Shown piece by piece: positions 30,836-53,360 of a stretch of DNA of 64,000 bases; position 1 is the stretch's first letter, and the number at the start of each line of letters is the position of its first letter. The translations under genes were made by a program, and so were the position numbers. This DNA is from an uncultured bacterium. GTDB taxonomy: Bacteria > Patescibacteriota > JACMRA01. The stretch is taken from NCBI GenBank assembly GCA_963784355.1, contig CAWAQU010000003.1:1-64000 (forward strand), written 5' to 3'. Under the pieces are notes generated by a model, which ran no database searches, was not told where the DNA came from, and saw nothing but the letters and a program-made list of their open reading frames with translations.

Positions 30836-30841
30836 AAACTA

Positions 30842-31168
30842 CTATTTCTTCAAAATACCAGTTAACCAGCTTGTAATTGCTTCTGCTCCAAAGATTAGAA
30901 TATTCGCACCAACTAATACTGCCATTGCTTCATAAAATTGTGTTCTTTTATTTGCATTAGACAAATCCATTAACGATCTAACACCAAAAAAAACAAATAC
31001 TAAAGCATCTATCGCGTAAACATACTCTCTAATTGTATCAATTAAAGACTGTAAAATATTGCTTAAACCAGGAATTGGTATGACTTCTGCAAAGGTAAAT
31101 ACGGGCAGGCAAAGCAAAGCTAATATTAAAAATATTGATAATTGTGAAATACGTTGTAATTTAGACAT
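30842..31168 (-). CDS. VirB2/TrbC-like pilin
   Basis: Signal peptide plus two hydrophobic helices, 108 aa, first gene of the operon. Confidence 0.7.
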   Translation of the reverse strand: MSKLQRISQLSIFLILALLCLPVFTFAEVIPIPGLSNILQSLIDTIREYVYAIDALVFVFFGVRSLMDLSNANKRTQFYEAMAVLVGANILIFGAEAITSWLTGILKK

Positions 31169-33745: not shown

Positions 33746-33777
33746 AAAAAAAGTGGGCTTAAACTTGTTAAACCCAC
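33746..33777 (-). terminator. Rho-independent terminator (cassette A)
   Basis: GTGGGTTTAAC-AAG-TTTAAGCCCAC-T7; near-identical to 50011..50041. Confidence 0.8.
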
Positions 33778-33801
33778 CTAATTATAAATTGCTAGACTAA
33801 T

Positions 33802-33969
33802 TTACTTGATGTTCATGTAATTAAAAAGAAATACGATTATTACAAATATAAATGTAACTATATTTGCCAACCAAATCTTATCTTTAGTTTTTTTATATTT
33901 TACAATTGCATTGATGACACCAAACAGTCCTACTAGCAAACCTATAATTTGAATAACTTGAGAATACAT
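33802..33969 (-). CDS. 55-aa two-TM protein, putative orphan immunity protein
   Basis: MYSQVIQIIGLLVGLFGVINAIVKYKKTKDKIWLANIVTFIFVIIVFLFNYMNIK (below ORF-track cutoff). Confidence 0.7.
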   Translation of the reverse strand: MYSQVIQIIGLLVGLFGVINAIVKYKKTKDKIWLANIVTFIFVIIVFLFNYMNIK

Positions 33970-33975: not shown

Positions 33976-34146
33976 TTATGTATTCTGCTTTATATACCAT
34001 ACTGTAAAAGCATAGATTATACCTACTGTTGCAAGACCTATCCGATGATACCAAAGTTTGTATTTTTCAGGAACAAGTAACTCACCTATCAATAGAAGAT
34101 TTAGTACTAGTATAAAGTTTTCATTAATAAACTTGATTAATTCCAT
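33976..34146 (-). CDS. 56-aa two-TM protein, putative orphan immunity protein
   Basis: MELIKFINENFILVLNLLLIGELLVPEKYKLWYHRIGLATVGIIYAFTVWYIKQNT. Confidence 0.7.
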   Translation of the reverse strand: MELIKFINENFILVLNLLLIGELLVPEKYKLWYHRIGLATVGIIYAFTVWYIKQNT

Positions 34147-34220: not shown

Positions 34221-34412
34221 CTAGTTAACATTCCAATTGTTTTTTACCGACAGTACAATCCAAAATGACCAAAAGAATAAAATTAAAGCCACTCCAAGAA
34301 AATCTAAATAACCTAGTTCTTTTTTATTAATAATAGCTTTATTATAAAGTTGTTTAAGTATTATCACAGTAGCAAAAATAACTCCTGGAGTATAAATCAT
34401 TAAAGGTAACAT
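34221..34412 (-). CDS. 63-aa two-TM protein, putative cognate immunity protein
   Basis: 12 nt downstream of the precursor; TM-basic loop-TM. Confidence 0.7.
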   Translation of the reverse strand: MLPLMIYTPGVIFATVIILKQLYNKAIINKKELGYLDFLGVALILFFWSFWIVLSVKNNWNVN

Positions 34413-34424: not shown

Positions 34425-35795
34425 TTAACATCTTGAACCTACCCACCAGCCAGAATTCCAAGTTCTGTATAATATTGCTCCATTTCCACAAACGGAATCA
34501 TTAGCGGAAATAAACGCGGCTAGTACACCAGAATAAGCCGAAACTAACCAGCCAAAAGGCCCAAATGCAGATGCTCCAATTGAAACTAAAGTAAACCCAA
34601 GAGATACTTTAACAGCACCACAATGATCAAGTATTGTTTTAATTCCCCACCAATAAGTTTCATTTATGGTGTAAGCGTTACAAATTATAGCCTCAGTTTT
34701 AACTCCAGTAACCAAACCATCAACTAAAGCCGCTTTGCTATTAGTTGCACTAGCAATATTTCTACCCTCTACTTTTAAAAGATTACTTAGATTATTCTTT
34801 TCTGCAATAGATAGTTTATTAAACTCACCAATAGCTAACTTAACTGTTTTTTCATCGTCTTTATCTAGCTTCAATTTATTTAACTTATCTTGAGATAAAA
34901 CTATATTTCCAGTACTTTCATCAATAATTCTAATTGATTCTACATTGGTGATTACATTTTGAGATAATGGCTTTTGACTTTGTAATTCTTTAAGTTTAGC
35001 CTGCTCTTCTTTAGATAATTTTGATATTAACTCTTCAGCTACTTCTTTTGTAGCTTGCTCTTTGGATTTCTTTTCTTTAGTTACTTTATCATTAATCTTA
35101 TCATCAAATTGTTTTTGCTGAGTTTTTAACTCCTGAGTAGTTGTATATTGAATATCAACTATAGCTTTATTAAAGTCTTTACTAATTTGAGTTTTAATAG
35201 ATTCAAGTGTTTTGAGACTACCTTGCAATGATAAAGAACTAATTTTTATACTATTTGAGCCGTTATTCAATAACTTCTCCAGTAAATTCTTTTTCTTAAC
35301 ATCTTTCTTAGCTTCTTGGAGTTTAGTATTATCTGTGTTTTTCAGTACAGGTTTGATTTGTTTAGCTTTGTCTGTATTTTTGTTGTTATTTAAATTTTCT
35401 AAAGCTAACAACTGGTTGTAAAAATTATCACTGCAATAATCTGTTATTTCAGATATTACTTTAGGTGTTTCCGAATCACAAGCTAGGTTTAGCGTTTCAC
35501 CCTTAATAATACCATTAACTGCAATGATGAGTCCACTTATTGCATAATCAGTTGTAACAGGTAATTTACTAGCTAAATAACCATAACTAGCATATCCTTC
35601 TACTGTACTATTTGAATTTGTTTTACCATTAACAGTTAAATATGCTTCAGGGCTGTTAATAGCTGACAAAGTATCTGCTTGAGTTTGAACTGAAAACAAA
35701 CTTGATACTGGGGCTGTCAGGGTTGTAAAAGCAAGGAAAACCGCTGTAACTGCTGTTGCGAGCTGGAGTGGTTTGAAAGTTTTGGGTATGAACAT
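34425..35795 (-). CDS. Secreted prepro-protein with Cys/WWG bacteriocin-like C-terminal domain (cassette A)
   Basis: Start moved to 35795 by alignment to the 48373 paralog; signal peptide; VKTEA followed by an 87-aa hydrophobic tail. Confidence 0.7.
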   Translation of the reverse strand: MFIPKTFKPLQLATAVTAVFLAFTTLTAPVSSLFSVQTQADTLSAINSPEAYLTVNGKTNSNSTVEGYASYGYLASKLPVTTDYAISGLIIAVNGIIKGETLNLACDSETPKVISEITDYCSDNFYNQLLALENLNNNKNTDKAKQIKPVLKNTDNTKLQEAKKDVKKKNLLEKLLNNGSNSIKISSLSLQGSLKTLESIKTQISKDFNKAIVDIQYTTTQELKTQQKQFDDKINDKVTKEKKSKEQATKEVAEELISKLSKEEQAKLKELQSQKPLSQNVITNVESIRIIDESTGNIVLSQDKLNKLKLDKDDEKTVKLAIGEFNKLSIAEKNNLSNLLKVEGRNIASATNSKAALVDGLVTGVKTEAIICNAYTINETYWWGIKTILDHCGAVKVSLGFTLVSIGASAFGPFGWLVSAYSGVLAAFISANDSVCGNGAILYRTWNSGWWVGSRC

Positions 35796-35963
35796 ATGTA
35801 TAAAACAAATATATTTTTTAAAAGCTAAGAATCTGTACAGAAATTCAAGCTGATTGTGCCTATTTGTTATAAATCCTCTTGTCAAGATACTTAAAAGTAT
35901 CATTTTGGGTAAAATGTGCATGAAAGACCTTTAAAATTGTGTATGTTACTCATACTAGCTTTT

Positions 35964-36251
35964 TTATAGGAAGTTGGATAAAATATTAAAAATGAAAGAA
36001 AATCTACCGGAAGTCTTTGACTCTAAAAATCTATCTCTATAAATTTCAAATTCAGGATATTTTTCCGAAAACTCATTTAATATAGCCAACTGCTCCTCGT
36101 CTGTAAGATTTTGAACTTGATCTTTAATAAAGTCTTTACCATTTTCTGCACTATCACTTTCTTTAATACCTTTTATACTCTTAATTATAGCAATTAAATA
36201 TTGCTGCTGCTCTTCAGTTAAGTTAGGTAAATTGTCTATTGATATGCTCAT
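35964..36251 (-). CDS. 95-aa hypothetical protein (paralog of 52084..52371)
   Basis: Clearly alignable over its full length. Confidence 0.8.
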   Translation of the reverse strand: MSISIDNLPNLTEEQQQYLIAIIKSIKGIKESDSAENGKDFIKDQVQNLTDEEQLAILNEFSEKYPEFEIYRDRFLESKTSGRFSFIFNILSNFL

Positions 36252-36498
36252 ACCGAGTATCTAATAATAAAAATTATATGTGATCAAGCTGCATAACGGG
36301 CCTTTAAACCCGTTTAACTAAATTCACAACTTGCAATTTATCTGAGTCAACTAAAAGTGACTTTACAAAGCTCATTTCTCCGTCATTATCGTTGGGGCTA
36401 AAACTAACCATTCCAGCTATAATATGAGCATTATTTATTACATTTATAAAAGCTTTAATTAGTCTAAATGATAAAATCTTGCCGTTATCTGCATATTA

Positions 36499-37534
36499 AC
36501 CCAAATCACGAAAATAAATTAATCCAACAAATTCAATCAATCTTAAAACAATCTTAGAACAACCATCTTTACTTCAAACTTAAATTTGAACTCTTAGACT
36601 CCTATACTTTTACTTCAAACTTTACTAAATTAAGACAACAAAAAAGGGTGCAAGTACATGACTACAAACACCCAAAATCAATCTACGGAAATTTTACAAA
36701 TCAGACAAGTACATAATTTCTTTCTTCAGTTTTATCAGGAAAAGAAGTGGAAAAACAAAGGTAGGCCATTAACTTTAAAACCTCCGGATATAGCTACAAT
36801 TACCCTAATCCAAAAACATTACCAGATTAAAACTCTTAAATCACTTCACAATTTACTGAAAGAAAAATATACAGATATATTTCCAAAACTTCCGGCATAT
36901 CAAAACTTTGTAATCATAATGAATAAAAGTAGTACTTTTCTCCTAAGCATATTGCTTTTAGTTTTACAAGCAGGTAAGCCTTATCTTACTAAGGTCAAAT
37001 TCATTGACTCAACTCCTGTACCGGTCTGTAAAGTATATAGAAGTAAAGGGCATAAAACAATGAAACTATTAGCCAGTAAGAAAAAGAGTACTACAGGCTG
37101 GTTCTATGGATTAAAACTACATCTAATTTGTGATGAGAATTATCATTTAGCGTGTTTTAAATTCACAACAGGATCAGTTGATGATAGAATAGTTTTAAAT
37201 GAGTTTATGGAAAAAATTAGGTTTACAAATTCAACTTTAGTAGCAGATGCAGGATATGTATCAAAGCAGTATGAAAGTAAGTTTTGGAATTCAGGAACAT
37301 ATTTTCTAACAGCAACAAAAGCTAATATGAAAGTATTGGCTAGTATATACCAACAAAAGCTAATGAATATGAGATCAAAGATAGAGACAGTATTTTCAAT
37401 ATTAAAAGATAAGTATCAGTTGATTACTTCAGTACCAAGATCAATAAACGGGTATTTAGCTCATTACGTTAGAAGTTTGTTTGGGTATGTATTTTGTGGA
37501 ATAGAGGGGTTTTTGGTAATTTCGTGATTTGGGT
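36499..37534 (+). mobile_element. IS982-family insertion sequence
   Basis: TIR ACCCAAATCACGAAA at both ends, 1036 bp; no target duplication visible. Confidence 0.9.
36658..37527 (+). CDS. IS982-family DDE transposase
   Basis: IDSTP.PVC, GWFYGLKLH, ADAGY, R..IETVFS.LK. Confidence 0.92.
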   Translation: MTTNTQNQSTEILQIRQVHNFFLQFYQEKKWKNKGRPLTLKPPDIATITLIQKHYQIKTLKSLHNLLKEKYTDIFPKLPAYQNFVIIMNKSSTFLLSILLLVLQAGKPYLTKVKFIDSTPVPVCKVYRSKGHKTMKLLASKKKSTTGWFYGLKLHLICDENYHLACFKFTTGSVDDRIVLNEFMEKIRFTNSTLVADAGYVSKQYESKFWNSGTYFLTATKANMKVLASIYQQKLMNMRSKIETVFSILKDKYQLITSVPRSINGYLAHYVRSLFGYVFCGIEGFLVIS

Positions 37535-38183
37535 TAGTATCCAAAAACTCTTGGTTAATTTCTTCAATTTTTGGAAACATGAAATAAATTCCTGGATTAT
37601 TTTCTCGCTCTTCTCTAAAGTTTGAAGGATATCTTACAAACCTACGATTACTATCTACATAGTTAGCAGGATAATAAAATTGTGACTTTTGATTGTATAG
37701 GGTTTTAAAGAAATTTACTTTCTGAAATTCAAATTGCTCAAGTAAATCATGATATGTCGACATTGCTATTTTGTAATGCTCCCGACTGTTACAAGTACTA
37801 GGATTTGCTAATGCCTTCCAAGCTTTAATAGCATTTCTGAGGTGGTCCATATAATCCAGCACTCTAATAATATAAAATAGGTCTTCATTTAGAAATTCAT
37901 ATGGGATATTTTTAAGTTCTTTTGGAGCCAGCTTTGTCCGGATTTCATCGTCATGATACCAAGCAACATACTCTTTATCTTTAAGCTTTGGTTCTGGATA
38001 TGGAAATTTCCATTCGGTCGATACAAATTTTTCATTAGAATCTAAGTCTTTTATATCTTTTTCTATCCATTTAGCGGGCAGCCTATGTGTACCTGAATTA
38101 TCATGAGTTGCTGCTTTAATCTCTTTTTTTGGCATTTGCTTTCTATCAAGAGATGAAACCCATTTTTCAGCCTTTCCGTTCAT
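37535..38183 (-). pseudogene. Hypothetical protein truncated by IS982
   Basis: ORF runs into the IS right end and stops inside it at 37464. Confidence 0.6.
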
Positions 38184-38325
38184 ATTGCTATAAAAATTAA
38201 TATTTTCTTATTATAGCATAATTTTAAGCTCTTGTACAAAACTGAGTAAAAGAGTGTATTGGATGGTTAGGAGTTCGTGTTACCAACTAACTATAAATCA
38301 ATTATTTCACATTATGACTTAGTAT

Positions 38326-39057
38326 TTACTCTGCTAAGGCTAAATCTTCTACTTTCCTGTCTTTGTAGACTATTTGTGCACCCAGCAAACTAGCATCACT
38401 ATATATATTTATATTACGGTCAAACTCTAGTCTTACAAAACTTACACCTTTATCTTGAACAATGAAATCCAAGAAATATTTTTTAACAGCTCCATGAACC
38501 ATGACCCTATCTCCTGGGTCAATTGCTTTTTCAATCTCAGAATAAATCATATTTTTTTTAAGTAACTTGAATTGTTCAACTTTCCTTCCAGCATATTTAG
38601 TACCACTTGGAGAAGCTAAGTCTGAATTATCATCTTGATCTTGTTGCCCCTCAAACTCAATATCACCACTATCAGGATTATTCTGTGATAAGTCTTGTTT
38701 TTTTGCTAACTTTACTGTCTCTTCAAAAGAATATTTTGTTGTTCCTCCTGTTACTGAATTTTGTTTGTCTATATTCCAAAGTAGTAATTTATCTCTGTGT
38801 AGCTGATATATTAGTATTATTCTTTGACCTTCAGGTGTTGGTTCGGGAGTATTGTAAATCAATGTATATTTTGGATTGAACAGATCAAATTTGGAAAGCA
38901 CTATTTCCTGTTTATCACTAAAGTTTTCTAGGTACTTTAGTTGATCATTGTCCATATATTTTATAAAATAGGGAGCATAAACTAGTGGGATGAAAGTTAG
39001 TAATAATGCTATGAGAACTACTAGGGTTAATAATATAATTGTTATTTTTTTAGACAT
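38326..39057 (-). CDS. Membrane-anchored extracellular protein, candidate immunity partner of the giant protein
   Basis: MSKKITIILLTLVVLIALL anchor; starts 16 nt after the giant ORF stop. Confidence 0.65.
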   Translation of the reverse strand: MSKKITIILLTLVVLIALLLTFIPLVYAPYFIKYMDNDQLKYLENFSDKQEIVLSKFDLFNPKYTLIYNTPEPTPEGQRIILIYQLHRDKLLLWNIDKQNSVTGGTTKYSFEETVKLAKKQDLSQNNPDSGDIEFEGQQDQDDNSDLASPSGTKYAGRKVEQFKLLKKNMIYSEIEKAIDPGDRVMVHGAVKKYFLDFIVQDKGVSFVRLEFDRNINIYSDASLLGAQIVYKDRKVEDLALAE

Positions 39058-39073
39058 ATGGGTTAATTTTTTA

Positions 39074-42000
39074 CTATTTTGGATAGTAAGTGCTTTCTCT
39101 ATCATTTATGATTACTTTAAGCTGATCAATACTGTTCGGTTTGTTAATGATTAAAGATCCATTATGACCATCATAAGCTTGTTTTTTGCATTCATAGGGT
39201 ATGATAACAAATTTGTAACACGTGTCAATTTTTTCTTTTTGCCAGTTATTATGTAAATCAAAATCTTTTATATCAAGAACTAGGTCTATGTCACCTAGTA
39301 TTGCTTTCTCCCTATTCATTCTTTGCCAGCTTTGCACCACCCAGCCATGTTCGCTCCCTGTATCATATAAACTCCCAAAGTCCATTCTGAAAGATTCTGA
39401 AGCTGATTTAGCGTATTCTTGATTTCCAGCTAAGCTCCTTTTACCTACAAAGGCCCTACTAAAATCAGAATATTCTTTAAAATCTTTCCTTTTCTGATCT
39501 GGATTTAAATATACGTTATATTTTCCTGCCACCTCAGCTGGCGGGTCAAGAGCTATTAAATCAGGTTTTTTACCAAATCTCTCAGCCATTTCCCCACTCA
39601 AGATAGACCCTAAAGAATGCCCGACAACCTTTAGATTATCTCCATCACTCAACCCCCATTCTCTTAGTTTTTCCACTGTTTTATCTGCCACAGGACCAAT
39701 CCAAGTAGCAGCCCTTGCCACCCCAGTTGGACAATTTGTACCAAATATACATTGACCTTTATCATTGTTTGAAGCTTCAGACCAGTCAAGTAATAGCACA
39801 ATATCATCCGGATATTCAGCTTTAATATTTCTACCTATTTTTTCAAATTCTCCCACAGGCTCATCATCCCATCCATGGGTAACAACCCAGACTTTTTTAC
39901 CCTGCTCATAACCAAAATTATACATATTTCTATCTTCATCATCCAAAAACTTAAGTTTGATACGTCTTTGATTTCTATCTACTATATCTCCCTCACGGCC
40001 TATATTACTATCTCCGTTTTTTAATACCCCGCCTGTATCACTTCTATCTCCTTTCACTGTAAAAGTACGCTCCACGCCCTCCCCATATTCAGGCAATCTA
40101 CTCAAATCTTTATCTAGCCTAATTCTGTTGCTGGATTTCTCATTTTTCCAATAAGTACTTCTATCAGGCAACTTACAACTACCTCCAAAACACTCAGTTT
40201 CATGGAAAATTTTTGAATCAAACCAAATCTCATCTTGCATAGTTACTTTGTCACCTCTATTATTTGGATCGCTGGACCATCTCGTCTCTACATCGAAACT
40301 GAATCTACCACTAGAGTTTGTATTTTCTTGCTCAGAAGTTATATTTTCGTCAAATAGCTGTATAGTATTTTTCCTACCAATCCATTTACTGCTTTGCAAT
40401 TTCTCATATTTTTCCTCAACAATTTTATCCTTATCAAATAATCTTATTTTAATTTCTTGATCTTTAGCGGGAGCTACTGCAAAAACTCTATATTTTGCTG
40501 AACTTTCTCCTGTGATTTCAGAAACTTTAACTACTTTGGTAATTTTAGGAGCCGGGAAATCAATTCCCCTAAAAGTACCGCCTGATCCGAGCCAATTTTT
40601 ATCAAAGTCAACAGTAATAACATCTGCACCCTTATTATCATAAAACCAATTTTCCAAATCCTCTTGACCACCTTCTCCAGCTTTAACACAAAATTTTTGG
40701 AACTGTTCTGGAGTCAAATTATCTTTTTCCTTTCCTAGATAAGTAGTAGGGTTTACGGCACGATTTTTCTTTCTAATTTCAAAATGCAAGTGGGCTCCTG
40801 TAGAATTACCGGTGTTCCCTACCCGACCAATAATAGTGTTTGTATCTACAACATCGCCAGGTTTTACTAAAGGATTTTTTTCATGCTGTAAATGCACATA
40901 CAAGCTGGTAATATTATTTCCATGATCAATTAAAACGTAATTTGCTGTGTCTATAAGTCTACCCGTGTCATCGTACTGCCCTTTGTCAGATTCGGTAAAA
41001 CCAAAAACAGTTTTCAAAACTACTCCGGCCGCGGCAGGATAAACAGGTTCACCTGGCAAAACTCCGTTATAGTCTACTCCTGTATGGTATTTTGTTTTAT
41101 TAAAATACTGTTGGCTGTATCCATATGGAAAACCAACGTAAGCGTCTTCACTGTGCAGCGGTTTTTTATAAACCCCGTCGTTACCTCCATATCCACATTT
41201 GGGACATTCTTTTGTAGTAATTTTCTTTACTGATTCATCAGAAATATTTCCGGCCCTATCTATAAGTTTCACTGTAATAACATACTCAGTTTTACCACAT
41301 TGTAGTTGGCCAACTAAATCAGTATTTTCATATATCCCTTGATTATTTAAAGTTACATTTAGATTAGATACTCCGCCTTTGGAATTAGTTATAGCTATAT
41401 CAGCCTTAACATCTTTCTCGCCTTTAATCTGTAGGCTAATAAATTGTGCTAAAATATCTCCAGTAGTGTCCAAATCAAGCGTGGGCTTTCTGGGAGCAAC
41501 AGTATCTCTTTCTAATCTAGTCTCCAGCCAACTTCCTGCATTCCCGGCTGTATCTACTGCTCTCATTTTGACCAAATAATTGCCGTCCTGACAGATCCCA
41601 AGTCTACGGGTATCTATAATTCTGGTACAATTACTCACTTCATCGTCGCGCCTTTGTAAACCTAAATTTAAAACAGCATTACCATATCCGTCAGCACCAT
41701 TTCTAAAAACAGTTTGCCTCATTCTATCATTTTCTTGTCTAATAATTTCATACTCCATATCAGCCTGTCTTTCACCTTCATGATCCAGTTTTATTTGTAT
41801 ATCTCGAGTGATTCCTTTTTGTGGGTAATCAATGATCGGACCGAAATTTACCGAAGTAATATTTTTCATCAGGTGATTTTTTGGTGCGTCGGCATCGTGG
41901 TAAATTGTCAAAGATTTATTAAAATCGCTTGTATTCCCGGCCAAATCAATTACCTGTCCTTGAAGGACATACCAGTTCTGAGGAATTCCTAGTGGAGACA

Positions 42001-45000
42001 AACCATTATCCGCAAATTTAAACTCATAATTCCAACGGCAGTTTCTGTTAAACTTTACAGTCAGCCCTCCTAGTATTTTATCCTGCCCGTTTTGTCTGCT
42101 ACAGCCCTGGGGGCCAATTTCAATGATCGGTAGTTTTATTTGAGTTTGATTTTTTTGCACTAAATACAATTGCAATCTTTGATTCCTCTCTCCATACCCA
42201 CCCAAAGTGATATAATCTTTTCGTATTACAAATGTATCTACAAGCCTATCTTTTTCCGGAAATTCACCATCAGCCTCTATTCCATTTTTATTATCGCCCC
42301 AATTGTCCAAATTAAACTCAGAAACATCCGGCCTGGTGTTATCAATAAATAACCTGAAATCAAGACTATCTTCTCTAGCTTTTGAACTATAATTTAAAAC
42401 TCCTACAGGATAAATTACTACAGGGGCTCCATCCAATAAAGTTCTATTTTTATCATTAGTAAATATTGTGCTATTACCCGCTAAATCGCTACACTGTATA
42501 AGTGGTTGATAAATCCCTTCACTTTTACGCTCAACATTTATAGACTCTTGAAAAATTTTGGAATCAGTGGAAATTAGAGTTTGAATAAAACTATCTTCTT
42601 TAATCAAATCACAATAATCCATGTATTCTTTAGCTACTAATTTGAAGTCAACTCGATCACCCGTAAATACCCAAGGATTTATACCTTTGTCCGGTACAGA
42701 AGTTTTTACAGACTCCAAACCTAAATTTGTTTTATCGTATACTACCTGTAGTGGTTCGAGAGATTTAGTTGAAGCTTTATCCGACAGGCTAGCCTCTAAA
42801 TCCAAATTATACAGATTTTCAACATCAGGTAAATTAAGTTCTACTTGCCAGATGCCCGTTACAGGTACGATAATCTCAGTAAATAATTTACTACCTGAAT
42901 ATATTTTTAATTTAGCCTCAGGATCAGCCACCCCTGTAAGTCTGATTCTAGTAGAATTTGTATAAAATTTATTTTGAAACTCTTTCATTTCGTAATATTT
43001 ACCCTCACCACTCTTTTTCTCTTGTCTAAGAACCCTGGGGGCTGAGGTAATTCTACCATCCAAAACAAATCCTGCACTTTTTTGATTTATGCTCTCACCT
43101 TTGTAACCTGAAGCCATAACTTCATATTGTCCGCCGCTAAAGAAAAATGGTATGGGATAGTTTTTAATCCAGACACATTCAGTTTGATTGCAATTATTTG
43201 GTTCCAAATCTTTTGGTTTTTTAGGACTATGATCTTTTTTCACTCTAGCATCATTTAATGGATTGAATTTTATATCGTCTTCAACCTGATTATTTATAAC
43301 AGCAATCCGGCCAGTAGGATCAAAAACATCCGTATAGCCCGTACGTTTATCGGTGCCTGGCAATTCCGGCAGATTAGTGTAATCAGCATATTCCAACTTA
43401 AGAGCTTCAGTATTTTGCGATACGGTTGATTTTAGTTGTAGACTACGAATTTGACTGAGGCTAATTTTACCACTCAAAAAATCATCAATTTCCTGCTTAC
43501 TATTTAGGCCCTGAAAAGTAGGAGTAATATTGAAATTTTTTATGCTTTCGGTAGTATCCAAAATAATTTTAATTTCATCAGATTTGGGTGTCTGATTACC
43601 ATAAGCATCTTTAGCTATAGCAGAAATGAAGTAAATTTGATTTGTTACTGAGCTACTAGGCAACACAACAACAGTACTGAAAAAACCGTTTTCATCAACA
43701 TCAGCCGTTTTTACCAAATCACAACTAACTGTATTAGGGCTTAATACTATATCAATGCAAATATCTACAATGGTTTTTCCTCGCAAATAACCACCATAAC
43801 CTGAATTTGGAGTATTCACCGGTGCTTGCCCTTGTATATTAATTACTCCACGTGTGGTAACATAATTATTTCTAGGAGAAGTGATTACAACTTTATCTAA
43901 TAGTTTTGTGTAAGCACTAAAGGTCTGATCCGGCACTTTCACCCGCACTCCATCCGTAGTTTCAACCTCTAAGTCGTAGTCGTAATTTCCATCACTAATC
44001 CAATTATTGTTCCCGTCTTTACCATCAAATTCAATCATAGGTGGAAGAGCGTTTCCTGTAAATTCCCGGACCACTTTATTGGTTGATTTATTGCTGATTT
44101 TCAGATTGTATTTCTGAATTTGAGCTATATCAGCCGGGTTGTTCGGATTTACTAAGTTGGTAGCAAAAAATATTCCATCTTGTCTTCCGTCGCCATTTGG
44201 AGATATATTAGTTAAATCAGGGTTAATACTTAAATTAATGGAATACAAATCTACATTTAAAATAATCTCACTTTCCAAAGCATTGGAAGCAGGATCAATT
44301 AATTTAACAAGGTTCCTATTTATAGCCTTTTTAGGTGAATTATTAGGGTTTATTGTACTACTAGTGTAATTAGTCTTTTGCAGTAAGTTAATTTTGAATT
44401 TACAAACAGATACCGGGCTAGTTTCCGGATTTTGATCGATATCTAATAAATCGTCGCAAATTACCGACAGTTTTTCAGACTCTGTAGTGAATGTTCTTAG
44501 ACTAACATTTTTATCATTCAAATCAAATTCGTTCGGTAAAGTATTATTTGCCTCAGGTTCTAATTTAAACACAATTTTCCTACCCAATAGGTCATTGCTG
44601 ATTTCAACTGTAGAGCCTTTCTCACCTGCTCCTTCAAAACCATTTAAACTATGATTTACAATAGCTTGATTTATTGGAGATTTATTTTGTAGATAGGTGT
44701 GAGTATCAATTACAAATTCGTTATCTAAATTTTGTATTTTATCAGCCACAGGTTGATTTTCAGGGTTACATTTAAACTCCGGTAAAATCGCAGTGTATTG
44801 TTGGTCGTTTTTGTTGCAAACAGCATTCCCGGCTTTATCTTTAATTTTCAGATAAACTTTGTACTTACCGTCAGGCTGCAGATTATTTAGTTGTATCTGG
44901 CAGTTTACTAAATTCTGAGTACCACCAGCTTGCACACAATTTAAATCATCAGCCAACTTCGGATTGCCATTTGTTAGATTGTTTCCGTCATTATATAAGG

Positions 45001-48000
45001 GTATTTCCTTCCAAGTTTGCCCATCTAAATTTTGCAACAGGGAAACATGATAGCCTTTTGGATTTGTTCCTAAGTGAAAACCTGAAGTTTGAGACAAATC
45101 ACCAATCAGATCGGGATCTTGAATTTGAAACTGGATTTTCGGATTTTTATTATTATCTGCATTTTTTAATAGACCACTTGGTTCAATTTTCAAAATTTCC
45201 GGATTGATTTGCTCAAAATTTATTTTTAACTCAGTTTCAGGATTTGCAACAGGGTTACCTATTTTATCAATTTTATTACCTGTTCCATCGGTAGTTCTAA
45301 ATTTAAAAACATTTTGCCCGAACTCAAGTACTTTTGAAATATTAAAATTTTTGTATTCATCCACTTTTTCAGTAATATCTTGCCAAATTTCGAGTAAATT
45401 TCCGCTTACATCCGATTTAGCTATTTCCAATTTAGCTCCCTCTTCGATCACAAAATCTTTATCTTGTTTATCAGGCTGATTAAACCCTGCTACAGCTCCC
45501 TGAATATTCTGATCAGGATTATTGACCCAGGAATTGTTTTTTGGCTCCACAATAGCAATGTTGGCCCCTGTATCGTCTAAAACTAGATTGAGATTGGCTT
45601 GGGATTGAGTGGTGTCATTTGTTTGCCCTGCTTTGTCGTAAACTACAATTTGTAAATTATATGCACCATCAATCGCAAAATTGCCATCATCTCTTTTTCC
45701 GTCCCATACAAAAGAAATATTTCCTGTTGTAGAGTTGGCTGGAGCAAAGTTTGGATCACTGAAATCGCAGTTTTGTAATTGTTTTTCGTTAATATTACAA
45801 ATGGTAACAGTTTTGATAATGTTGTTTTGACTATCCTTGATTTTCAACTCACTTCGGGCAAAGTTTTTTTCGCTATATTCGAAATTTACATTTATTTTAT
45901 CTTTTATACCACTACTGGTAGTATTGCCCGGTGAGAATCTCTGCAAATCCAGCTTGGAGTCGGTAATTACAGGTAAAGTTGCATCTTGGGTAGAACTCAC
46001 TACTTTGGACCATGCTGAAATGTTGCCGTAATTGGGGGAATTATTCAGGCTTCGATCTCTGGCTTTTGCTCTATAATAGTAAGTTTGCGCATCCTCAAGC
46101 CCCGGAATTTCAAAAGAAACAGGCTGTGATACACCGTTAATTATACTTCCGTTTGTTTGGAATATACCTAATTTTTTGCTGTTATCTTGGAAACTTGAAT
46201 CCTGAGACACTTCTAAAAAATAGACAATATTGTCCGGTGAAGCTATATTATCACTAGAATTTTTATTCAATTTAAGCTCAATTTGATTCCCGGGTGAAAA
46301 TTCAGGCAAATTCGGCACATCCGGAATTTCCGGCGGAGTAGTATCAACTTTGATAAATTTAGAAGGAGTGGAATTTGCATTACTTTCAGTATTGTATTCA
46401 TCTCGTAAAACCGGACGCCAGTAATAACTTCCATCACCCACAACACGCCCAAAATCAGCCTGATTATAGTAGTATCCTGGTTGCCACAAATAGGGGTTGT
46501 TCAAATCCCACCAATTTTGGTTATTCTGAGATAATTGGATTTTTGCAGTAGCTTTGTTATTAATGTCATTATTTTGATGATCTCCATCTTGAATATTTCC
46601 TACCCTAAAATTCACTTGCATGTTTCCACCACATTGCCCACTAGCTGGATTGACAGATTGATCGCAATTTCCTATTAAATCAGAGTTATTATCAGGCGTA
46701 ATAGGTTGTGCCGGAGCCGGGGGGAAATTGGATTCATATTCTAAAACAGGTGGAGTACTAAAACCATTACAGGGTGCCAAATCAGTATTTTTCTGACAAA
46801 AGACTACACCTTTATACTCATCTTCGTTGTAAGATTTCAAGCCCAAAACCACTTTATTTGTGCCCAGTTGGGTATTTACTAAATCTTTAATATCACTACT
46901 TTCTCGCACAGATATTTGAGCGTTGCTATTGTATTGAGGAAAATTTAAATTGCCGTAACTTGAACCTAAACTAGGTTGATTTGCCCAGCTAGTACTATTT
47001 TCAGAAAAATTATCTCCATTTACTCTAAAAATACCTGCACTAAAAGGACCACTGGTAGTACCGTAATGACTTACCTTTAACTTTGCCGAGATTACAGGAA
47101 CTTCCGGACCTGCAAATTTTAGAAAAGTTCGGCTGTCCATATACCACGGCTGTCCAGGAACTGTCACTTCATGATAATTTCCAACTACTCTAGGTTTTTT
47201 GAAATATTGTGGCGTGGTAGCCGTTGAACTCACAAAAGTATCTTCAGTTGGTGTTTTTACCTCAATTCCAGGATCAATCACAATCGGAAATGTTCTATCT
47301 TTGGAATATAAAAACTCTTGATTTGGCATGATACTCAAACTTTTACTAGTCTGATCAAACTCTATCTTTTCCTCTTTGCTATCAAGCTTTCCATCAAAAA
47401 TGACTGCCTGATTTAACTTTATTTCTTGAGCAAGATTATTGAATTTAAGGTTATTTTGTTTTGAAAAATCCAATTGCTTGTTTGTAGTTATTTCAAATAC
47501 CAACTTACTCAAATCATTATTTAAAGCTTGGAAGTTATTCAAAATTAATTCTTTGACAAACCCTTCAGACTGAACAGTAAATTTTAAATCAATATCAGGC
47601 AAAACTTGCTTATAAACAATGCTATTTTTGGTAATTATGGGAGGTTGTTGGCTTATCAATTGCTGTTTACCCACAAAAATTTTAGAAATATTGTACTCTA
47701 AATCTTGAGTTTTGAAACTTACCCCATTTTCTAGATTATTACTGAAGTAAACTTTAAAGTCATTGGCTTTGTTTTCAAAATCCCAGTTTTTTTGACTACT
47801 TGGCACAATGGAATTATCAACCTCCAACCAATTAGTATTTGATTTGAAGTGAACTTTGTCAGCAAAAGACTGAGTTTTATATCTGTAACCAAGAGGCTTG
47901 CCGGTATCTACAATTTTAAAAATTTTAGTAGTAGAAGTCCGCAACTCCAAAATTTCTTCCTGTACCCCTTCCAAAGATTTTTGATTGGCAAATACTGGTA

Positions 48001-48097
48001 AATTTGGTAGAAAGATTTGACCTAAGAGCAAAACTGATATCAAACTTAATAGTACCGATTTTAATATATTCTCGGTGCTCTTTTTTAAAGCAAACAT
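39074..48097 (-). CDS. ~3000-aa secreted protein: WapA/Rhs-like N-terminus, DNRLRE-like, Ig/FN3/FlgD-Ig repeats, M23 peptidase, C-terminal alpha/beta lipase
   Basis: Signal peptide; FPIVIDP..DTFV; many D.AGN/DT.P.P; ISPNGDG; HTGVD...HLHFEI; THGW, DWS, GHSLG, LDP. Confidence 0.85.
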   Translation of the reverse strand: MFALKKSTENILKSVLLSLISVLLLGQIFLPNLPVFANQKSLEGVQEEILELRTSTTKIFKIVDTGKPLGYRYKTQSFADKVHFKSNTNWLEVDNSIVPSSQKNWDFENKANDFKVYFSNNLENGVSFKTQDLEYNISKIFVGKQQLISQQPPIITKNSIVYKQVLPDIDLKFTVQSEGFVKELILNNFQALNNDLSKLVFEITTNKQLDFSKQNNLKFNNLAQEIKLNQAVIFDGKLDSKEEKIEFDQTSKSLSIMPNQEFLYSKDRTFPIVIDPGIEVKTPTEDTFVSSTATTPQYFKKPRVVGNYHEVTVPGQPWYMDSRTFLKFAGPEVPVISAKLKVSHYGTTSGPFSAGIFRVNGDNFSENSTSWANQPSLGSSYGNLNFPQYNSNAQISVRESSDIKDLVNTQLGTNKVVLGLKSYNEDEYKGVVFCQKNTDLAPCNGFSTPPVLEYESNFPPAPAQPITPDNNSDLIGNCDQSVNPASGQCGGNMQVNFRVGNIQDGDHQNNDINNKATAKIQLSQNNQNWWDLNNPYLWQPGYYYNQADFGRVVGDGSYYWRPVLRDEYNTESNANSTPSKFIKVDTTPPEIPDVPNLPEFSPGNQIELKLNKNSSDNIASPDNIVYFLEVSQDSSFQDNSKKLGIFQTNGSIINGVSQPVSFEIPGLEDAQTYYYRAKARDRSLNNSPNYGNISAWSKVVSSTQDATLPVITDSKLDLQRFSPGNTTSSGIKDKINVNFEYSEKNFARSELKIKDSQNNIIKTVTICNINEKQLQNCDFSDPNFAPANSTTGNISFVWDGKRDDGNFAIDGAYNLQIVVYDKAGQTNDTTQSQANLNLVLDDTGANIAIVEPKNNSWVNNPDQNIQGAVAGFNQPDKQDKDFVIEEGAKLEIAKSDVSGNLLEIWQDITEKVDEYKNFNISKVLEFGQNVFKFRTTDGTGNKIDKIGNPVANPETELKINFEQINPEILKIEPSGLLKNADNNKNPKIQFQIQDPDLIGDLSQTSGFHLGTNPKGYHVSLLQNLDGQTWKEIPLYNDGNNLTNGNPKLADDLNCVQAGGTQNLVNCQIQLNNLQPDGKYKVYLKIKDKAGNAVCNKNDQQYTAILPEFKCNPENQPVADKIQNLDNEFVIDTHTYLQNKSPINQAIVNHSLNGFEGAGEKGSTVEISNDLLGRKIVFKLEPEANNTLPNEFDLNDKNVSLRTFTTESEKLSVICDDLLDIDQNPETSPVSVCKFKINLLQKTNYTSSTINPNNSPKKAINRNLVKLIDPASNALESEIILNVDLYSINLSINPDLTNISPNGDGRQDGIFFATNLVNPNNPADIAQIQKYNLKISNKSTNKVVREFTGNALPPMIEFDGKDGNNNWISDGNYDYDLEVETTDGVRVKVPDQTFSAYTKLLDKVVITSPRNNYVTTRGVINIQGQAPVNTPNSGYGGYLRGKTIVDICIDIVLSPNTVSCDLVKTADVDENGFFSTVVVLPSSSVTNQIYFISAIAKDAYGNQTPKSDEIKIILDTTESIKNFNITPTFQGLNSKQEIDDFLSGKISLSQIRSLQLKSTVSQNTEALKLEYADYTNLPELPGTDKRTGYTDVFDPTGRIAVINNQVEDDIKFNPLNDARVKKDHSPKKPKDLEPNNCNQTECVWIKNYPIPFFFSGGQYEVMASGYKGESINQKSAGFVLDGRITSAPRVLRQEKKSGEGKYYEMKEFQNKFYTNSTRIRLTGVADPEAKLKIYSGSKLFTEIIVPVTGIWQVELNLPDVENLYNLDLEASLSDKASTKSLEPLQVVYDKTNLGLESVKTSVPDKGINPWVFTGDRVDFKLVAKEYMDYCDLIKEDSFIQTLISTDSKIFQESINVERKSEGIYQPLIQCSDLAGNSTIFTNDKNRTLLDGAPVVIYPVGVLNYSSKAREDSLDFRLFIDNTRPDVSEFNLDNWGDNKNGIEADGEFPEKDRLVDTFVIRKDYITLGGYGERNQRLQLYLVQKNQTQIKLPIIEIGPQGCSRQNGQDKILGGLTVKFNRNCRWNYEFKFADNGLSPLGIPQNWYVLQGQVIDLAGNTSDFNKSLTIYHDADAPKNHLMKNITSVNFGPIIDYPQKGITRDIQIKLDHEGERQADMEYEIIRQENDRMRQTVFRNGADGYGNAVLNLGLQRRDDEVSNCTRIIDTRRLGICQDGNYLVKMRAVDTAGNAGSWLETRLERDTVAPRKPTLDLDTTGDILAQFISLQIKGEKDVKADIAITNSKGGVSNLNVTLNNQGIYENTDLVGQLQCGKTEYVITVKLIDRAGNISDESVKKITTKECPKCGYGGNDGVYKKPLHSEDAYVGFPYGYSQQYFNKTKYHTGVDYNGVLPGEPVYPAAAGVVLKTVFGFTESDKGQYDDTGRLIDTANYVLIDHGNNITSLYVHLQHEKNPLVKPGDVVDTNTIIGRVGNTGNSTGAHLHFEIRKKNRAVNPTTYLGKEKDNLTPEQFQKFCVKAGEGGQEDLENWFYDNKGADVITVDFDKNWLGSGGTFRGIDFPAPKITKVVKVSEITGESSAKYRVFAVAPAKDQEIKIRLFDKDKIVEEKYEKLQSSKWIGRKNTIQLFDENITSEQENTNSSGRFSFDVETRWSSDPNNRGDKVTMQDEIWFDSKIFHETECFGGSCKLPDRSTYWKNEKSSNRIRLDKDLSRLPEYGEGVERTFTVKGDRSDTGGVLKNGDSNIGREGDIVDRNQRRIKLKFLDDEDRNMYNFGYEQGKKVWVVTHGWDDEPVGEFEKIGRNIKAEYPDDIVLLLDWSEASNNDKGQCIFGTNCPTGVARAATWIGPVADKTVEKLREWGLSDGDNLKVVGHSLGSILSGEMAERFGKKPDLIALDPPAEVAGKYNVYLNPDQKRKDFKEYSDFSRAFVGKRSLAGNQEYAKSASESFRMDFGSLYDTGSEHGWVVQSWQRMNREKAILGDIDLVLDIKDFDLHNNWQKEKIDTCYKFVIIPYECKKQAYDGHNGSLIINKPNSIDQLKVIINDRESTYYPK

Positions 48098-48227
48098 AAA
48101 CTGTAACAAAAAATTAATTGTACATATTAAGCACAAAAAAACATTCTTTGCAACACCCTAAGTGTAGCATTGTATAAATAAAATAGATTTTTTGAAGTGT
48201 AAAATAAAATTCACAAATTCAAACACC

Positions 48228-48372
48228 CATATTTTTAAAGCCTGCTCACACACATTTCACTTAAAATGATACATATATATGTCTTGACAAGAGATTATAT
48301 AATAAATAGGCACAGTTAGCTCGAATTTCTGTACAGATTCTTAGCTTTTTATAATATATTTGTTTTATACAT
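48228..48372 (+). promoter_or_regulatory. Conserved precursor upstream region (paralog ~35796..35945 on - strand)
   Basis: TTGACA and the palindrome TCTGTACAGA (48328 / 35832) are conserved in both copies. Confidence 0.65.
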
Positions 48373-49746
48373 ATGTTCACACTCAAACCTCTCAAGCTCG
48401 CAACAGCGGTCACCGCATTTTTTCTTGCTTTTTCCACCCTTGCGGCTCCAGTATCAAGTTTGTTCTCAGTTCAAACTCAAGCAGATACTTTATCAGCTAT
48501 TAACAGCCCTGAAGCATATTTAACTGTTAATGGTAAAACAAATTCAAATGGTACAGTGGAAGGTTATGCTAGCTATGGTTACTTAACTAGTAAATTACCC
48601 ATTAGTACTGATTATGCAGTAAGTGGATTATCAATTGCAGTAAATGGTATTATTAAAGGTGAGACGCTTAACCTAGCTTGTGATTTAGAAACACCTAAAG
48701 TAATATCTGAAGTAACAGATTATTGTAGTGATAATTTTTACAATCAATTATTGGCTTTAGAAAATTTGAATAATAACAAAGGCTTAGATAAAGCTAAACA
48801 AATCAAACCTGTACTGAAGAATACAGATAGCAACAAACTCCAAGAATCCAAAAAAGATGTTAAGAAAAAGAATTTATTAGAGAAGCTACTCTCAAACAAC
48901 AGCTCTTCAAACAGTGTAAAAATCAGCTCTTTGTCACTTCAAGGAAGTATTAAAATACTTGAAACAATTAAAACACAAATTAGTAAAGATTTTAATAAGG
49001 CTACAGTAGAAATACAATATACTACTACTCAAGAGTTAAAGATTCAACAAAAACTTATTGAAGATAAAATTAATGATAAGGTTACTAAAGAAAAGAAATC
49101 TAAGGAGCAAGCTACAGTAGAAGTTTTAGACCAGTACTTAAAACAATTTTCAGCAAATCAGCAAAATGGTAACTTAGGTAATATTTCTAAAAAAACAGTA
49201 GAAAAGGTAGAATCTATTAAAACTATTGATGAGAACACAGGTAATGTTGTTTTATCTCAAGATAAGCTAAACAAGCTGAAATTAGCTAAAGTTGAAGAAA
49301 ATTCTGTAAAACAAGCTATTACTGAATTTAATAAGTTATCAATAGCGCAAAAAAGTAATTTAAATAATGTTTTAAATGAAGAGGGTAAGAATATTACTAG
49401 TGGAGTTAATAACAAAACAGCTTTAGTAAGTGGTTTGGTTGGTGGGGTTAAGGCTGAAGCAGGCTGGTGTAGTAGTTATGTACCTTTGTATTGGTATTGG
49501 TGGGGCGTAGATGCTCATATTACACAATGTAATATTGATACGTTTAATTGGGTTGGTGGTGGATATGCTACCATTATGGGTGCATTAGCCGCAACACCAT
49601 GTGGATGGTTTTGTGGTACACTAGCCATTATAATGGGTTTGGAATTAGGATATATTAACTGGTTAAATAGTAGATGTGGTGGAAATGGAGTTATGCTACA
49701 CTATGTATATAGAGGCCCTGTTTATTGGTTCTGGACTGTTTGTTAA
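48373..49746 (+). CDS. Secreted prepro-protein with Cys/WWG bacteriocin-like C-terminal domain (cassette B)
   Basis: Pro-region near-identical to 34425..35795; VKAEA followed by a different 94-aa tail. Confidence 0.7.
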   Translation: MFTLKPLKLATAVTAFFLAFSTLAAPVSSLFSVQTQADTLSAINSPEAYLTVNGKTNSNGTVEGYASYGYLTSKLPISTDYAVSGLSIAVNGIIKGETLNLACDLETPKVISEVTDYCSDNFYNQLLALENLNNNKGLDKAKQIKPVLKNTDSNKLQESKKDVKKKNLLEKLLSNNSSSNSVKISSLSLQGSIKILETIKTQISKDFNKATVEIQYTTTQELKIQQKLIEDKINDKVTKEKKSKEQATVEVLDQYLKQFSANQQNGNLGNISKKTVEKVESIKTIDENTGNVVLSQDKLNKLKLAKVEENSVKQAITEFNKLSIAQKSNLNNVLNEEGKNITSGVNNKTALVSGLVGGVKAEAGWCSSYVPLYWYWWGVDAHITQCNIDTFNWVGGGYATIMGALAATPCGWFCGTLAIIMGLELGYINWLNSRCGGNGVMLHYVYRGPVYWFWTVC

Positions 49747-49773
49747 TAATCTTTCATTATCTTTTATATTATT

Positions 49774-49974
49774 ATGTCTGAATTTTTTCTTTATTTCTTT
49801 ACTGATGGCATGCCATTTACTATGATAATAGCTATAAATGTCTTAATCACAATTCCGTTGCTACCTAGATTTAAAAATGATAAAGACAAACAGATACAAA
49901 TCTACAGATTAGGTTTACCTATGTTAACCTTTTTGTATGTAGTTTACTTCGGAGTAAAGGCTTTTACAAAATAA
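49774..49974 (+). CDS. 66-aa two-TM protein, putative cognate immunity protein
   Basis: Directly downstream of the precursor; TM-RFKNDKDK-TM. Confidence 0.7.
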   Translation: MSEFFLYFFTDGMPFTMIIAINVLITIPLLPRFKNDKDKQIQIYRLGLPMLTFLYVVYFGVKAFTK

Positions 49975-50010
49975 AGAGTAGGTAAAGTATAACCTTGCAT
50001 AGATATTGAG

Positions 50011-50041
50011 GTGGGTTTAACACGTTTAAGCCCACTTTTTT
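50011..50041 (+). terminator. Rho-independent terminator (cassette B)
   Basis: GTGGGTTTAAC-ACG-TTTAAGCCCAC-T6. Confidence 0.8.
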
Positions 50042-50060: not shown

Positions 50061-51272
50061 CTAAATTTTTTTTGCTTCAGATAAAATTAGTACATGTGAC
50101 AAATCTCTTTCTAAAGCAACATTAATTATTTGTAAGTCCGATTTATCAAAATCAGAAACAACCTCCTCCAAATGGGTCATTTCATGCTTCCAAATATTAA
50201 TTTCTTGCCCTTTTGTTAATGATACTCTCTTTTCTTTGTTAAATACTTTGAAATGAATAGTATAATCTTTATCTAATTTCAAATTAAGCATTCTATTATT
50301 TGTGTTGTTATCAAATTTTGAAATTAATTCGCAATTTTTTATATCAATACCCAATAATTCTGGTATCCAAGTATTTTGACTATCTGCCTTTGGATTTTTT
50401 ACATAGCTAAAATCAACTCGATTTGATAATGAATCTAAAGTATTACTAATCATCAGTAAATCATATCGATCCATGCCTTGTCGAAAATTTTTGAGTACTT
50501 TGAGCTTATCTTCATGCATTCCGATCATACTACCCAAGTACAGCACTATATTTATATTTTTGGATCCATCTAGCTCTTCTTTTAGTGGGGTAAATATACC
50601 GTCAAAATAGGTCTTTTCTACGTCACATTCATAGCTTATAAATTCTATTTCAGGAAACCATTCGTTTATATTCCTTTTGGATATTTCATTCATTTGATTA
50701 CTTACATCAACTGCAATATATCTTTTTACTACGATATTTTTAGTTAATTGTGTAAGCCACTTTTTAACAGGATGTGAATTGCCTTGTCCGATATCAATAA
50801 TATTGATACTTTCAACGTCTTTAAGTTTGTATTTAAGATAATCTAGAGTACTGTCTAATAAATTCATTACTCTTCTAGGTGTAGGATAATCCCCGTCTAT
50901 AGCATTTAAATTGTAGTAATTATCCCAAACTTCTGCACCATCGTCAACAAAGGTAAATTTGTTTGGAATTTCACATTTTAATTCAAGATGATTTATCATC
51001 TCCCATATTGCTTCATTGCTGAAAATATCGAAAAACTTTTGATCTGGATGAACATCAAAATGTAAATCACCTCTTCTATGTTTTCTACCTTCCTCGCGAA
51101 GCTTAGATAATTCTAAATCATTATGGATATTGTCTATAATATAAACTTTATTGTTCACCTTCTCAAGTTGTAAATTATTTTTTTTATCTATACTTTTTTG
51201 TATCCAAATTGCTACTGTTGCTTTAGAAACGTTATATTTTAGTGCTACATCAGTATTCTTAATTATGCTCAT
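50061..51272 (-). CDS. N-terminal HTH + EgtD-like SAM methyltransferase fusion (cassette B)
   Basis: KYNVSKATVAIWI; KFTF...G...W; DIGQGN; VDVS; LYLGSMIG. Confidence 0.75.
   Translation of the reverse strand: MSIIKNTDVALKYNVSKATVAIWIQKSIDKKNNLQLEKVNNKVYIIDNIHNDLELSKLREEGRKHRRGDLHFDVHPDQKFFDIFSNEAIWEMINHLELKCEIPNKFTFVDDGAEVWDNYYNLNAIDGDYPTPRRVMNLLDSTLDYLKYKLKDVESINIIDIGQGNSHPVKKWLTQLTKNIVVKRYIAVDVSNQMNEISKRNINEWFPEIEFISYECDVEKTYFDGIFTPLKEELDGSKNINIVLYLGSMIGMHEDKLKVLKNFRQGMDRYDLLMISNTLDSLSNRVDFSYVKNPKADSQNTWIPELLGIDIKNCELISKFDNNTNNRMLNLKLDKDYTIHFKVFNKEKRVSLTKGQEINIWKHEMTHLEEVVSDFDKSDLQIINVALERDLSHVLILSEAKKI

Positions 51273-53284: not shown

Positions 53285-53360
<76 letters not shown>

Follow-up and report, generated by a model that had tools for sequence, protein, structure and literature searches.

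What is the function of the tails in which two otherwise similar secreted proteins of a small bacterial genome end, and why should such tails vary on a largely common body? The question arises from two genes, here called precursors A and B, within the stretch of 64,000 nucleotides (nt) analyzed in this study (C3:1-64000 of a genome of 1.14 Mb in 13 contigs with a G+C content of about 32%; hereafter the window). Based on the comparisons described below, we consider it fairly probable that the tails represent a new toxin-domain family, employed in a polymorphic, Sec-exported and bacteriocin-like pro-toxin that is encoded in one operon with candidate immunity genes. A wider claim is put forward as a tentative possibility, in which the tails would form an undescribed toxin family across phyla, with a stapled fold of its own absent from PDB, a pro-module, a junction, deployment through both Sec and Rhs, and the first arsenal of this kind in a small genome.

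Precursor A (34425..35795, minus strand; 456 amino acids [aa]) and precursor B (48373..49746, plus strand; 457 aa) are both composed of a signal-peptide-like N-terminus, a pro-region, a junction (GVKTEA in A and GVKAEA in B) and a C-terminal tail of type A or type B, respectively. For A, the ATG matching the paralogs was chosen as the start, while a longer frame extends to 35921. Tail A (34425..34688, minus strand) consists of 87 aa plus the stop codon and carries C..WWG..C, a hydrophobic helical hairpin, CGNG and a terminal C; tail B (49462..49746, plus strand) consists of 94 aa plus the stop codon and is modelled as a beta-hairpin, two helices and a second beta-hairpin. An earlier note on this DNA had placed the reading frames and the tail starts (34688 and 49462) at the same coordinates and had given the same tail lengths, and the features that it listed, C3, W13-W14-G15, C23, CG(G)NG and the terminal Cys, were found in both tails and are invariant across six full-length relatives. 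By reading, the N-termini of A and B and of a third paralog C, which this genome encodes on contig C12 (461 aa when counted from the start shared by all three), showed a basic K-rich n-region, a hydrophobic core and the sequence ..VQTQA followed by D, and no RR, that is, no twin-arginine signal for the twin-arginine translocation (Tat) pathway.

A and B are 64% identical over the full length, and this identity is unevenly distributed. Up to the motif G.V.GV(K)xEA, the pro-regions of A, B and C share 74-83% of their amino acids and 78-83% of their nucleotides, whereas the tails past the junction motif are only 28-35% identical, tail A being 28-29% identical with tails B and C. The switch at the junction thus stands as first described, but the pro-regions are not near-identical, as had been stated; around residues 240-300 of A the identity drops to 40-53%. 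The synonymous divergence (dS) between the pro-regions is about 0.72-0.76, and the ratio of non-synonymous to synonymous divergence (dN/dS) is 0.14-0.22 among the three paralogs (0.18-0.22 for A), indicating that A, B and C are real genes.

In a word-based search of 5.8 billion proteins, only six full-length relatives were retrieved, three of which were this genome's own. A profile (A2) was then built from the six tails and used for an exhaustive search of 1.84 billion cluster representatives (50% identity clusters), yielding 106 matches at E<=1e-3 and 16 at E<=1e-10, a resemblance of the tails far beyond chance; the tail hidden Markov model (HMM) scored A with E=1.8e-30 and B with E=1.5e-47. 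The profile hits and the six seeds were combined into a set of 109 proteins, from which P0060 (636 aa, six weak stretches) had been discarded as a likely false positive before any counting. In all 109 proteins (76-497 aa, median 221) the tail ends within 10 residues of the C-terminus, and a constant tail is combined with pro-regions of about 40 to about 400 aa. The most conserved positions, in the numbering of B, are C366 (98%), W376-W377-G378 (91-96%), N384, C386 (99%), C435 (83%), G439 (97%), W452 (82%) and the terminal C. Upstream from the tail, a pro-motif ..V..A[VI]..[YF]N.LP...[RK] is also conserved, with its N present in 83%.

No relevant Pfam family was found across the 109 members, A and B giving nothing beyond noise at E<=0.1, and no Pfam bacteriocin family (class II double-glycine leader types, lactococcin 972 and others) was detected in A, B or the 109 members. 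The tail family was not recognized by NCBIfam or PADLOC, and the sequences in PDB gave no match at E<=10. A literature search with a few terms in main texts found nothing relevant on the tail family, which is not proof of its being unpublished, since an entry for it may exist in the supplementary tables of Zhang et al. 2012 or Makarova et al. 2019.

Two scans of metagenome contigs (alignments A1 and A6) and one of genome contigs (A6) gave no relative, and the smaller alignment A7 gave one locus of Ktedonobacteraceae, in which a precursor of 213 aa is followed 81 nt later by a two-segment protein of 63 aa. In the class to which Ktedonobacteraceae belongs, the domain was detected in 20 of 169 genomes (a tally that counts the unpublished genome G526), and the pairing of precursor and membrane gene holds there too. 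Among 27 genomes from the order of the present organism, the domain was detected in 5, all of one family, and in a phylum-wide sample it was found in 4 of 401 genomes, only of that same family; as many of the sampled genomes of the phylum are incomplete, the remainder should be taken as "not found" rather than "absent". The relatives within this family of organisms show the same layout of precursor and small genes.

The combination of tails with pro-regions differs among the members of the set. Tail B is 72% identical with the tail of P0004 and 51% identical with that of P0006, the corresponding pro-regions being only 44% and 30% identical, while P0004 and P0010 are 91% identical in their pro-regions and 37% identical in their tails. 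Two metagenomic proteins of 141-142 aa, P0012 and P0021, share an identical head of 38 aa up to GVEV, after which the tails are wholly different; both resemble orphan tail modules in which the junction has been retained. At the level of sequence, these comparisons show that tails are exchanged at a conserved junction (G.V.GV.xEA in this lineage) on a pro-region that is lineage-specific, so that one genome would hold three types of the putative toxin. The system is polymorphic, as the earlier note had proposed, and the diversity of tails extends to the homologs.

Each precursor is the first gene of a short operon. Behind tail A, on the minus strand, a two-segment membrane protein of 63 aa (34221..34412) is encoded 13 nt after A; this gene is unique to the locus and represents the candidate cognate immunity gene. 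It is followed by the genes for a 56-aa membrane protein of the MELIKF type (33976..34146), of which a 75-76% identical copy exists at the C12 locus, and for a two-segment membrane protein of 55 aa (33802..33969), the last gene of operon A. A terminator-like hairpin with a 12-bp stem and a T run (33751..33779, minus strand) closes this operon. Behind tail B, on the plus strand, a 66-aa membrane protein of the MSEFF type (49774..49974) is encoded after a gap of 28 nt; this candidate immunity protein has a 73% identical copy at the C12 locus, and the operon is closed by a terminator-like hairpin with a 13-bp stem and a T run (50008..50038, plus strand). The two hairpins are nearly the same in sequence. 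The gaps within the operons are 13-28 nt, and a strong terminator is present solely after the final small gene.

The gene directly after each tail is unique to that tail, while the 56-aa and 66-aa types are found again at the C12 locus with 73-76% identity, as might be expected of spare immunity genes. One small membrane gene of its own had been assigned to each tail in the earlier note; membrane genes do follow both tails, but their number differs, being three for A (63, 56 and 55 aa), one for B (66 aa) and four for C on contig C12 (80, 56, 78 and 66 aa), all with hydrophobic segments.

The association was then counted over 25 precursors, including locus L034 of genome G526, which was scored as a miss; beyond this count and the tally given above, G526 supports none of the claims made here. 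As a downstream partner, we accepted a small open reading frame (ORF) on the same strand with at least two membrane segments under a strict hydrophobicity rule, starting within 450 nt downstream. Such an ORF was present downstream of 14 of the 25 precursors and upstream of 2 of 25 in the control, and both upstream positives belonged to a tandem array, where they were the preceding cassette. When every ORF of 150 aa or more in this genome was taken as background, the rate was 23/789 to 43/789 (2.9-5.4%). By eye, with four-segment proteins of 144-174 aa included, a membrane gene was recognized downstream of 20 of 23 precursors. The proposed pairing with downstream small membrane genes is supported by their location within one operon and by this enrichment, and it holds in most of the loci surveyed.

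The tandem array, on a short contig of one relative, consists of three successive units of tail plus small gene. The two closest pairs of tails (68% and 59% identity) are also the two closest pairs of downstream proteins (59% and 49%). A complex prediction for tail B and the 66-aa downstream protein gave a score of 0.00 in a run without controls, and no conclusion was drawn from it. A single immunity family across phyla was also considered and was dropped: an HMM of the small membrane proteins from Ktedonobacteria recovered none of the small proteins encoded here, its best match (E=0.03) being an unrelated ORF, although their loop motifs look alike by eye.

The toxin role of the tail gains independent support from one member, P0081, in which the tail is carried behind an Rhs core end. 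P0081 starts with a match to positions 28-76 of the 76 in TIGR03696, the end of the Rhs-associated core (E=9.4e-14, 51.7 bits against a cut-off of 32.5), and the tail follows further on. In P0104, the last 23 positions of the core (E=4.3e-4, below the cut-off) abut the first Cys of the tail. According to Zhang et al. 2012 (PMC3482391), this is the place at which toxins are carried in Rhs proteins. In A, B and C, no Rhs-associated core TIGR03696 was detected.

This observation also bears on an alternative, polymorphic self/non-self recognition or adhesion, in which tail and membrane partner would mediate recognition of kin or attachment to cells instead of killing. The polymorphism and the paired membrane genes also fit such a role; moreover, the organism is probably of the epibiont type with a small genome, and the cassettes flank a giant surface protein. 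A recognition module, however, would not be expected in the slot behind the Rhs core end, which belongs to toxins; the tandem arrays and the extra copies of small genes resemble collections of immunity genes, and a hydrophobic helical hairpin is atypical as a recognition surface. We regard recognition or adhesion as unlikely, though it is the alternative to which most weight is given.

The structure of the tail was predicted using AlphaFold2 for B (predicted local distance difference test [pLDDT] 81.5, predicted template modelling score [pTM] 0.78, residues 1-32 below pLDDT 50) and for a distant member of 215 aa, P0018 (pLDDT 83.2). Both models agree in a beta-hairpin, a helix of about 22 residues, a helix of about 24 residues and a beta-hairpin, with a pLDDT of about 90 for the tail, and in both a flexible linker of low confidence precedes the tail, an indirect sign at most of release by proteolysis. 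The pro-region of B is modelled as a long folded domain, alpha/beta and helical, and that of P0018 as a compact pro-module of about 60 aa (pLDDT 95-98). Foldseek searches with the two models gave no match in PDB at E<=0.001, and the ESM Atlas returned for P0018 only unnamed clusters, with scores of 0.85-0.88.

The cysteines of the tail tend to be lost in pairs. In 87 sequences C435 occurs together with the terminal Cys, in 17 neither is found, and only 3 sequences have one without the other; C366 and C386 almost always occur together; and between the helices no cysteine is found in 33 sequences, two in 63 and one in 12. From this co-loss alone we infer disulfides between C1 and C2 and between C5 and the terminal Cys, with a further, optional one formed by the middle pair. 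The pattern of cysteines points to an oxidizing, extracytoplasmic site of folding. The earlier view of the tail as disulfide-bonded and membrane-active is supported as probable by the co-loss of cysteines together with the modelled helical hairpin.

A hairpin of this kind could also serve as a membrane anchor, the two hydrophobic helices of the tail being long enough for a membrane. A structural envelope protein would then be assumed, in which the tail anchors a surface coiled-coil protein and the small genes encode assembly partners, in agreement with the long folded domain of the pro-region. Anchors, however, are not normally swapped between unrelated types on a constant body, nor do they normally follow Rhs cores; conserved paired cysteines and beta-hairpin caps are unusual for them, and the pro-region ranges from about 40 to about 400 aa on a constant tail. 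Taken together, an anchoring role appears improbable, slightly more so than recognition.

The architecture of A and B may be compared with several known systems. A protease-activated antimicrobial peptide of Propionibacterium jensenii is secreted through Sec as an inactive pro-protein, and its C-terminal peptide becomes active once cleaved extracellularly. The halocin C8 peptide is cysteine-rich. Closticin 574 of Clostridium tyrobutyricum (PMC10888436) is made as a pre-protein of 309 aa, of which about 27 aa form a general signal peptide, and the antimicrobial peptide of 82 aa is freed by further extracellular processing. If their tails are likewise cut free, A and B would fit the same architecture of a signal peptide, a long pro-region and a C-terminal peptide of about 80 aa; immunity pairing and tail swapping are not described in the passages considered here.

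Halocin C8 itself is reported, in a preprint, to be a short hydrophobic C-terminal peptide of 76 aa cut from a secreted precursor of 283 aa, with homologues also fused to RHS repeats in a Chloroflexota bacterium (bioRxiv 10.64898/2026.07.27.741052). Its twofold use, as prepro-peptide and as cargo of Rhs proteins, is shared with the tail family; in contrast, ProC8 is exported through Tat and supplies immunity by its own N-terminal part, whereas A, B and C have no twin arginine and are followed by separate small membrane genes. The halocin C8 model TIGR04449 matched neither A, B and C at E<=1 nor 10 other members at E<=0.1, and it failed to match any of the 169 genomes of the class mentioned above, 20 of which carry the tail; the control genome of Haloferax volcanii was matched. 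Closticin 574 and halocin C8 had been named as analogies of architecture only, in agreement with the failure of the halocin C8 model to match the family.

Systems of the Rhs/CdiA type are described (PMC3482391) as a constant body with a conserved junction, a variable C-terminal toxin and an immunity gene immediately downstream, with orphan modules and arrays also occurring. The tail family resembles these in its variable C-terminal domain after a conserved junction, and in the Rhs core end of P0081. The proteins in the window differ in that Rhs, filamentous haemagglutinin or other delivery repeats are missing; instead, they have their own pro-domain behind a Sec-type signal. The junction motif GV.xEA is new. 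In the same list of toxins, the only pore-forming domain of two helices is Tox-WTIP, which is small, very hydrophobic and C-terminal, with two predicted membrane helices (PMC3482391). Its motifs are absent or rare in the present set (Wx[ST]IP in 0/109 and RxxR in 7/109 members), and Tox-WTIP is free of cysteines and WWG and restricted to proteobacteria. We read the tail family as a probable new toxin-domain family within the known logic of polymorphic toxins and prepro-bacteriocins.

On this basis, we can also propose a mode of action, of which each step is predicted from sequence and models. The precursor would be exported by Sec, as its N-terminal signal-like segment suggests. Outside the cell, the last 87-100 residues would fold into a Gly/Ala-rich hydrophobic helical hairpin with two beta-hairpin caps, stapled by two or three disulfides. 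Before its release or exposure, this tail would probably be kept soluble or inactive by the pro-module (..V..A[IV]..[YF]N.LP..) and the flexible linker. The tail may then enter the membrane of a target cell and damage it, pore formation or depolarization being a guess, while the small membrane proteins encoded just downstream would protect the producer.

Several observations weigh against the proposal of a secreted toxin with paired immunity. The tail shows no likeness to any characterized toxin, either by sequence or by fold. By eye, 3 of 23 precursors have no downstream membrane gene, and the enrichment counts overstate significance because the kin are not independent. Across 78 pairs, which are not independent of one another, the identities of tails and of downstream proteins correlate only weakly (rho 0.26), and no homology is detectable among the small membrane proteins across phyla. 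The Rhs link was seen in only 2 of 109 members, one of them above the curated cut-off. Release at an AxA-like site, as first proposed, did not prove to be family-wide: the motif precedes the first Cys in only 27 of 104 members, being conserved in the low-G+C branch while other members have Gly-rich or variable linkers. An obvious N-terminal signal is absent from 57 of 109 members in a crude test that misses some true signals, and a subgroup of 13 members ends in HQ without the last disulfide, so that one account of export and disulfides does not fit all members.

The HQ subgroup (P0031, P0045, P0055, P0065, P0066, P0076, P0088, P0092, P0101 and others) ends in ..WHQ without the last cysteine pair; its N-terminus is helical (..YE.AI..ME.HL..DGT..LDV..) and lacks a signal peptide, which suggests another export route or another use. 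The sequence VQ[TA]QA marks the putative signal-peptide site in A, B and C and, by reading, was seen again as the pre-tail site of P0049, P0064 and P0070; this anecdotal sharing hints at signal-peptidase-like recognition.

The two cassettes of the window form the arms of an inverted and rearranged duplication (about 31.3-36.25 kb and 48.2-52.4 kb). The longest pair of repeats in the arms is 506 nt with 87% identity (35271-35776 and 48383-48888) and lies inside the 5' halves of A and B; recombination between these repeats would invert a 12.6-kb segment with the giant gene and homogenize the pro-regions. Between the arms are located an insertion sequence (IS) transposase gene, two unknown genes and the gene for a secreted surface protein of 3020 aa (39074..48136, minus strand) with CBM96, Ig-like and M23 peptidase domains. 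Near the C-terminus of this protein a lipase-type GHSLGS was seen by eye, and a paralog of 4157 aa is encoded at C12:187242-199715.

Each arm also holds an XRE-type regulator, two small ORFs and a gene for a helix-turn-helix (HTH) plus Methyltransf_33-like protein, which is EgtD-like; these genes (32487..33707, plus strand, 406 aa; 50061..51272, minus strand, 403 aa) are convergent on operons A and B, respectively. Such a gene adjoins all five cassettes in the genus of this genome, and a peptide of the ribosomally synthesized and post-translationally modified (RiPP) kind, with the tail methylated by the adjacent enzyme, could be imagined. In this 1.14-Mb genome, however, the gene has eight paralogs, only three of which are beside precursors, and none was seen at loci L008 and L007 or at the Ktedonobacteraceae locus; furthermore, the enzyme is cytoplasmic with an N-terminus of the DNA-binding type, while the tail folds outside the cell. 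The methyltransferase as tail-modifying enzyme was dropped after the eight paralogs had been found, and a modified peptide is considered the most improbable of all the explanations. Other paralogs of the genome (G000) are located at C12:6983-8194, C12:34380-35579, C10:32464-33645, C9:45894-47153, C11:21544-22743 and C3:166380-167588; several of the eight adjoin an XRE-type regulator and an ORF of 55-62 aa, and the group looks like an expanded module.

Toward the start of the window, the region 20718-31168 contains genes for VirD4-like, C39-like peptidase, VirB4/TraG-like, TcpE-like and weakly VirB2-like (30842-31168) proteins. ParA and a tyrosine integrase are encoded farther out (within 14848-31168, together with the secretion genes), and a tRNA-Asn gene is found at 53285-53360. 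The integrase, ParA, the type IV secretion set of Gram-positive type and the distant tRNA-Asn suggest an integrated element. The earlier note had placed the cassettes on a conjugative element; the secretion genes, the integrase, ParA and the tRNA-Asn in the vicinity agree with this in part, but no relaxase was found, and a search for an att repeat of the tRNA-Asn gave none. The C12 cassette and those of the relatives are not adjacent to genes of this kind, indicating that the cassette is a mobile unit by itself rather than a constant component of a conjugative element.

The same neighborhood could suggest that A and B are substrates or pilus-associated components of the type IV secretion system, since its VirD4-like, VirB4-like, TcpE-like and weak VirB2-like genes are only 3-14 kb away. 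The C12 copy, however, is about 117 kb from the nearest VirB4-like gene, and the flanks of the loci in relatives and in Ktedonobacteraceae show no such genes. In addition, the N-termini are of Sec type and there is no pilin-family match, the VirB2/TrbC pilin family PF04956 matching neither A nor B. A role in type IV secretion is thus held to be very unlikely.

Elsewhere in the window, an 804-aa protein with two GNAT domains, a class II aminoacyl-tRNA synthetase core and an anticodon-binding domain is encoded at 61530-63944 (minus strand). The segment 7282-9542 encodes a Y-family polymerase (IMS plus DUF4113) as well as an SRAP peptidase, and a staphylococcal-nuclease-domain protein is encoded nearby (11384-12682). 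The genome size of 1.14 Mb, compared with 0.5-2 Mb for phylum-mates, is consistent with, though not proof of, the probable epibiont of the candidate phyla radiation (CPR) that had been assumed.

If the tails are indeed toxins of a secreted pro-toxin system, they would add a new membrane-targeting fold, and a new design of pro-domain and junction, to the polymorphic toxins. One and the same module would serve both as a secreted prepro-bacteriocin and as Rhs cargo, in parallel to the report on halocin C8. The family is small (106 clusters at 50% identity) yet present in at least two distant phyla, and is thus tractable for expression and structure work. In the present genome, the arsenal would consist of three toxin types and eight small membrane genes, the latter as spare immunity genes, and would be the first candidate bacteriocin-like arsenal of bacteria with ultra-small genomes. 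With a giant lytic surface protein and a cluster of type IV secretion genes as its neighbors, it might act on the host cell or on rival epibionts. For small-genome and probably epibiotic bacteria, whose competition and interaction with hosts are poorly known, it would provide a testable system of weapon and antidote.

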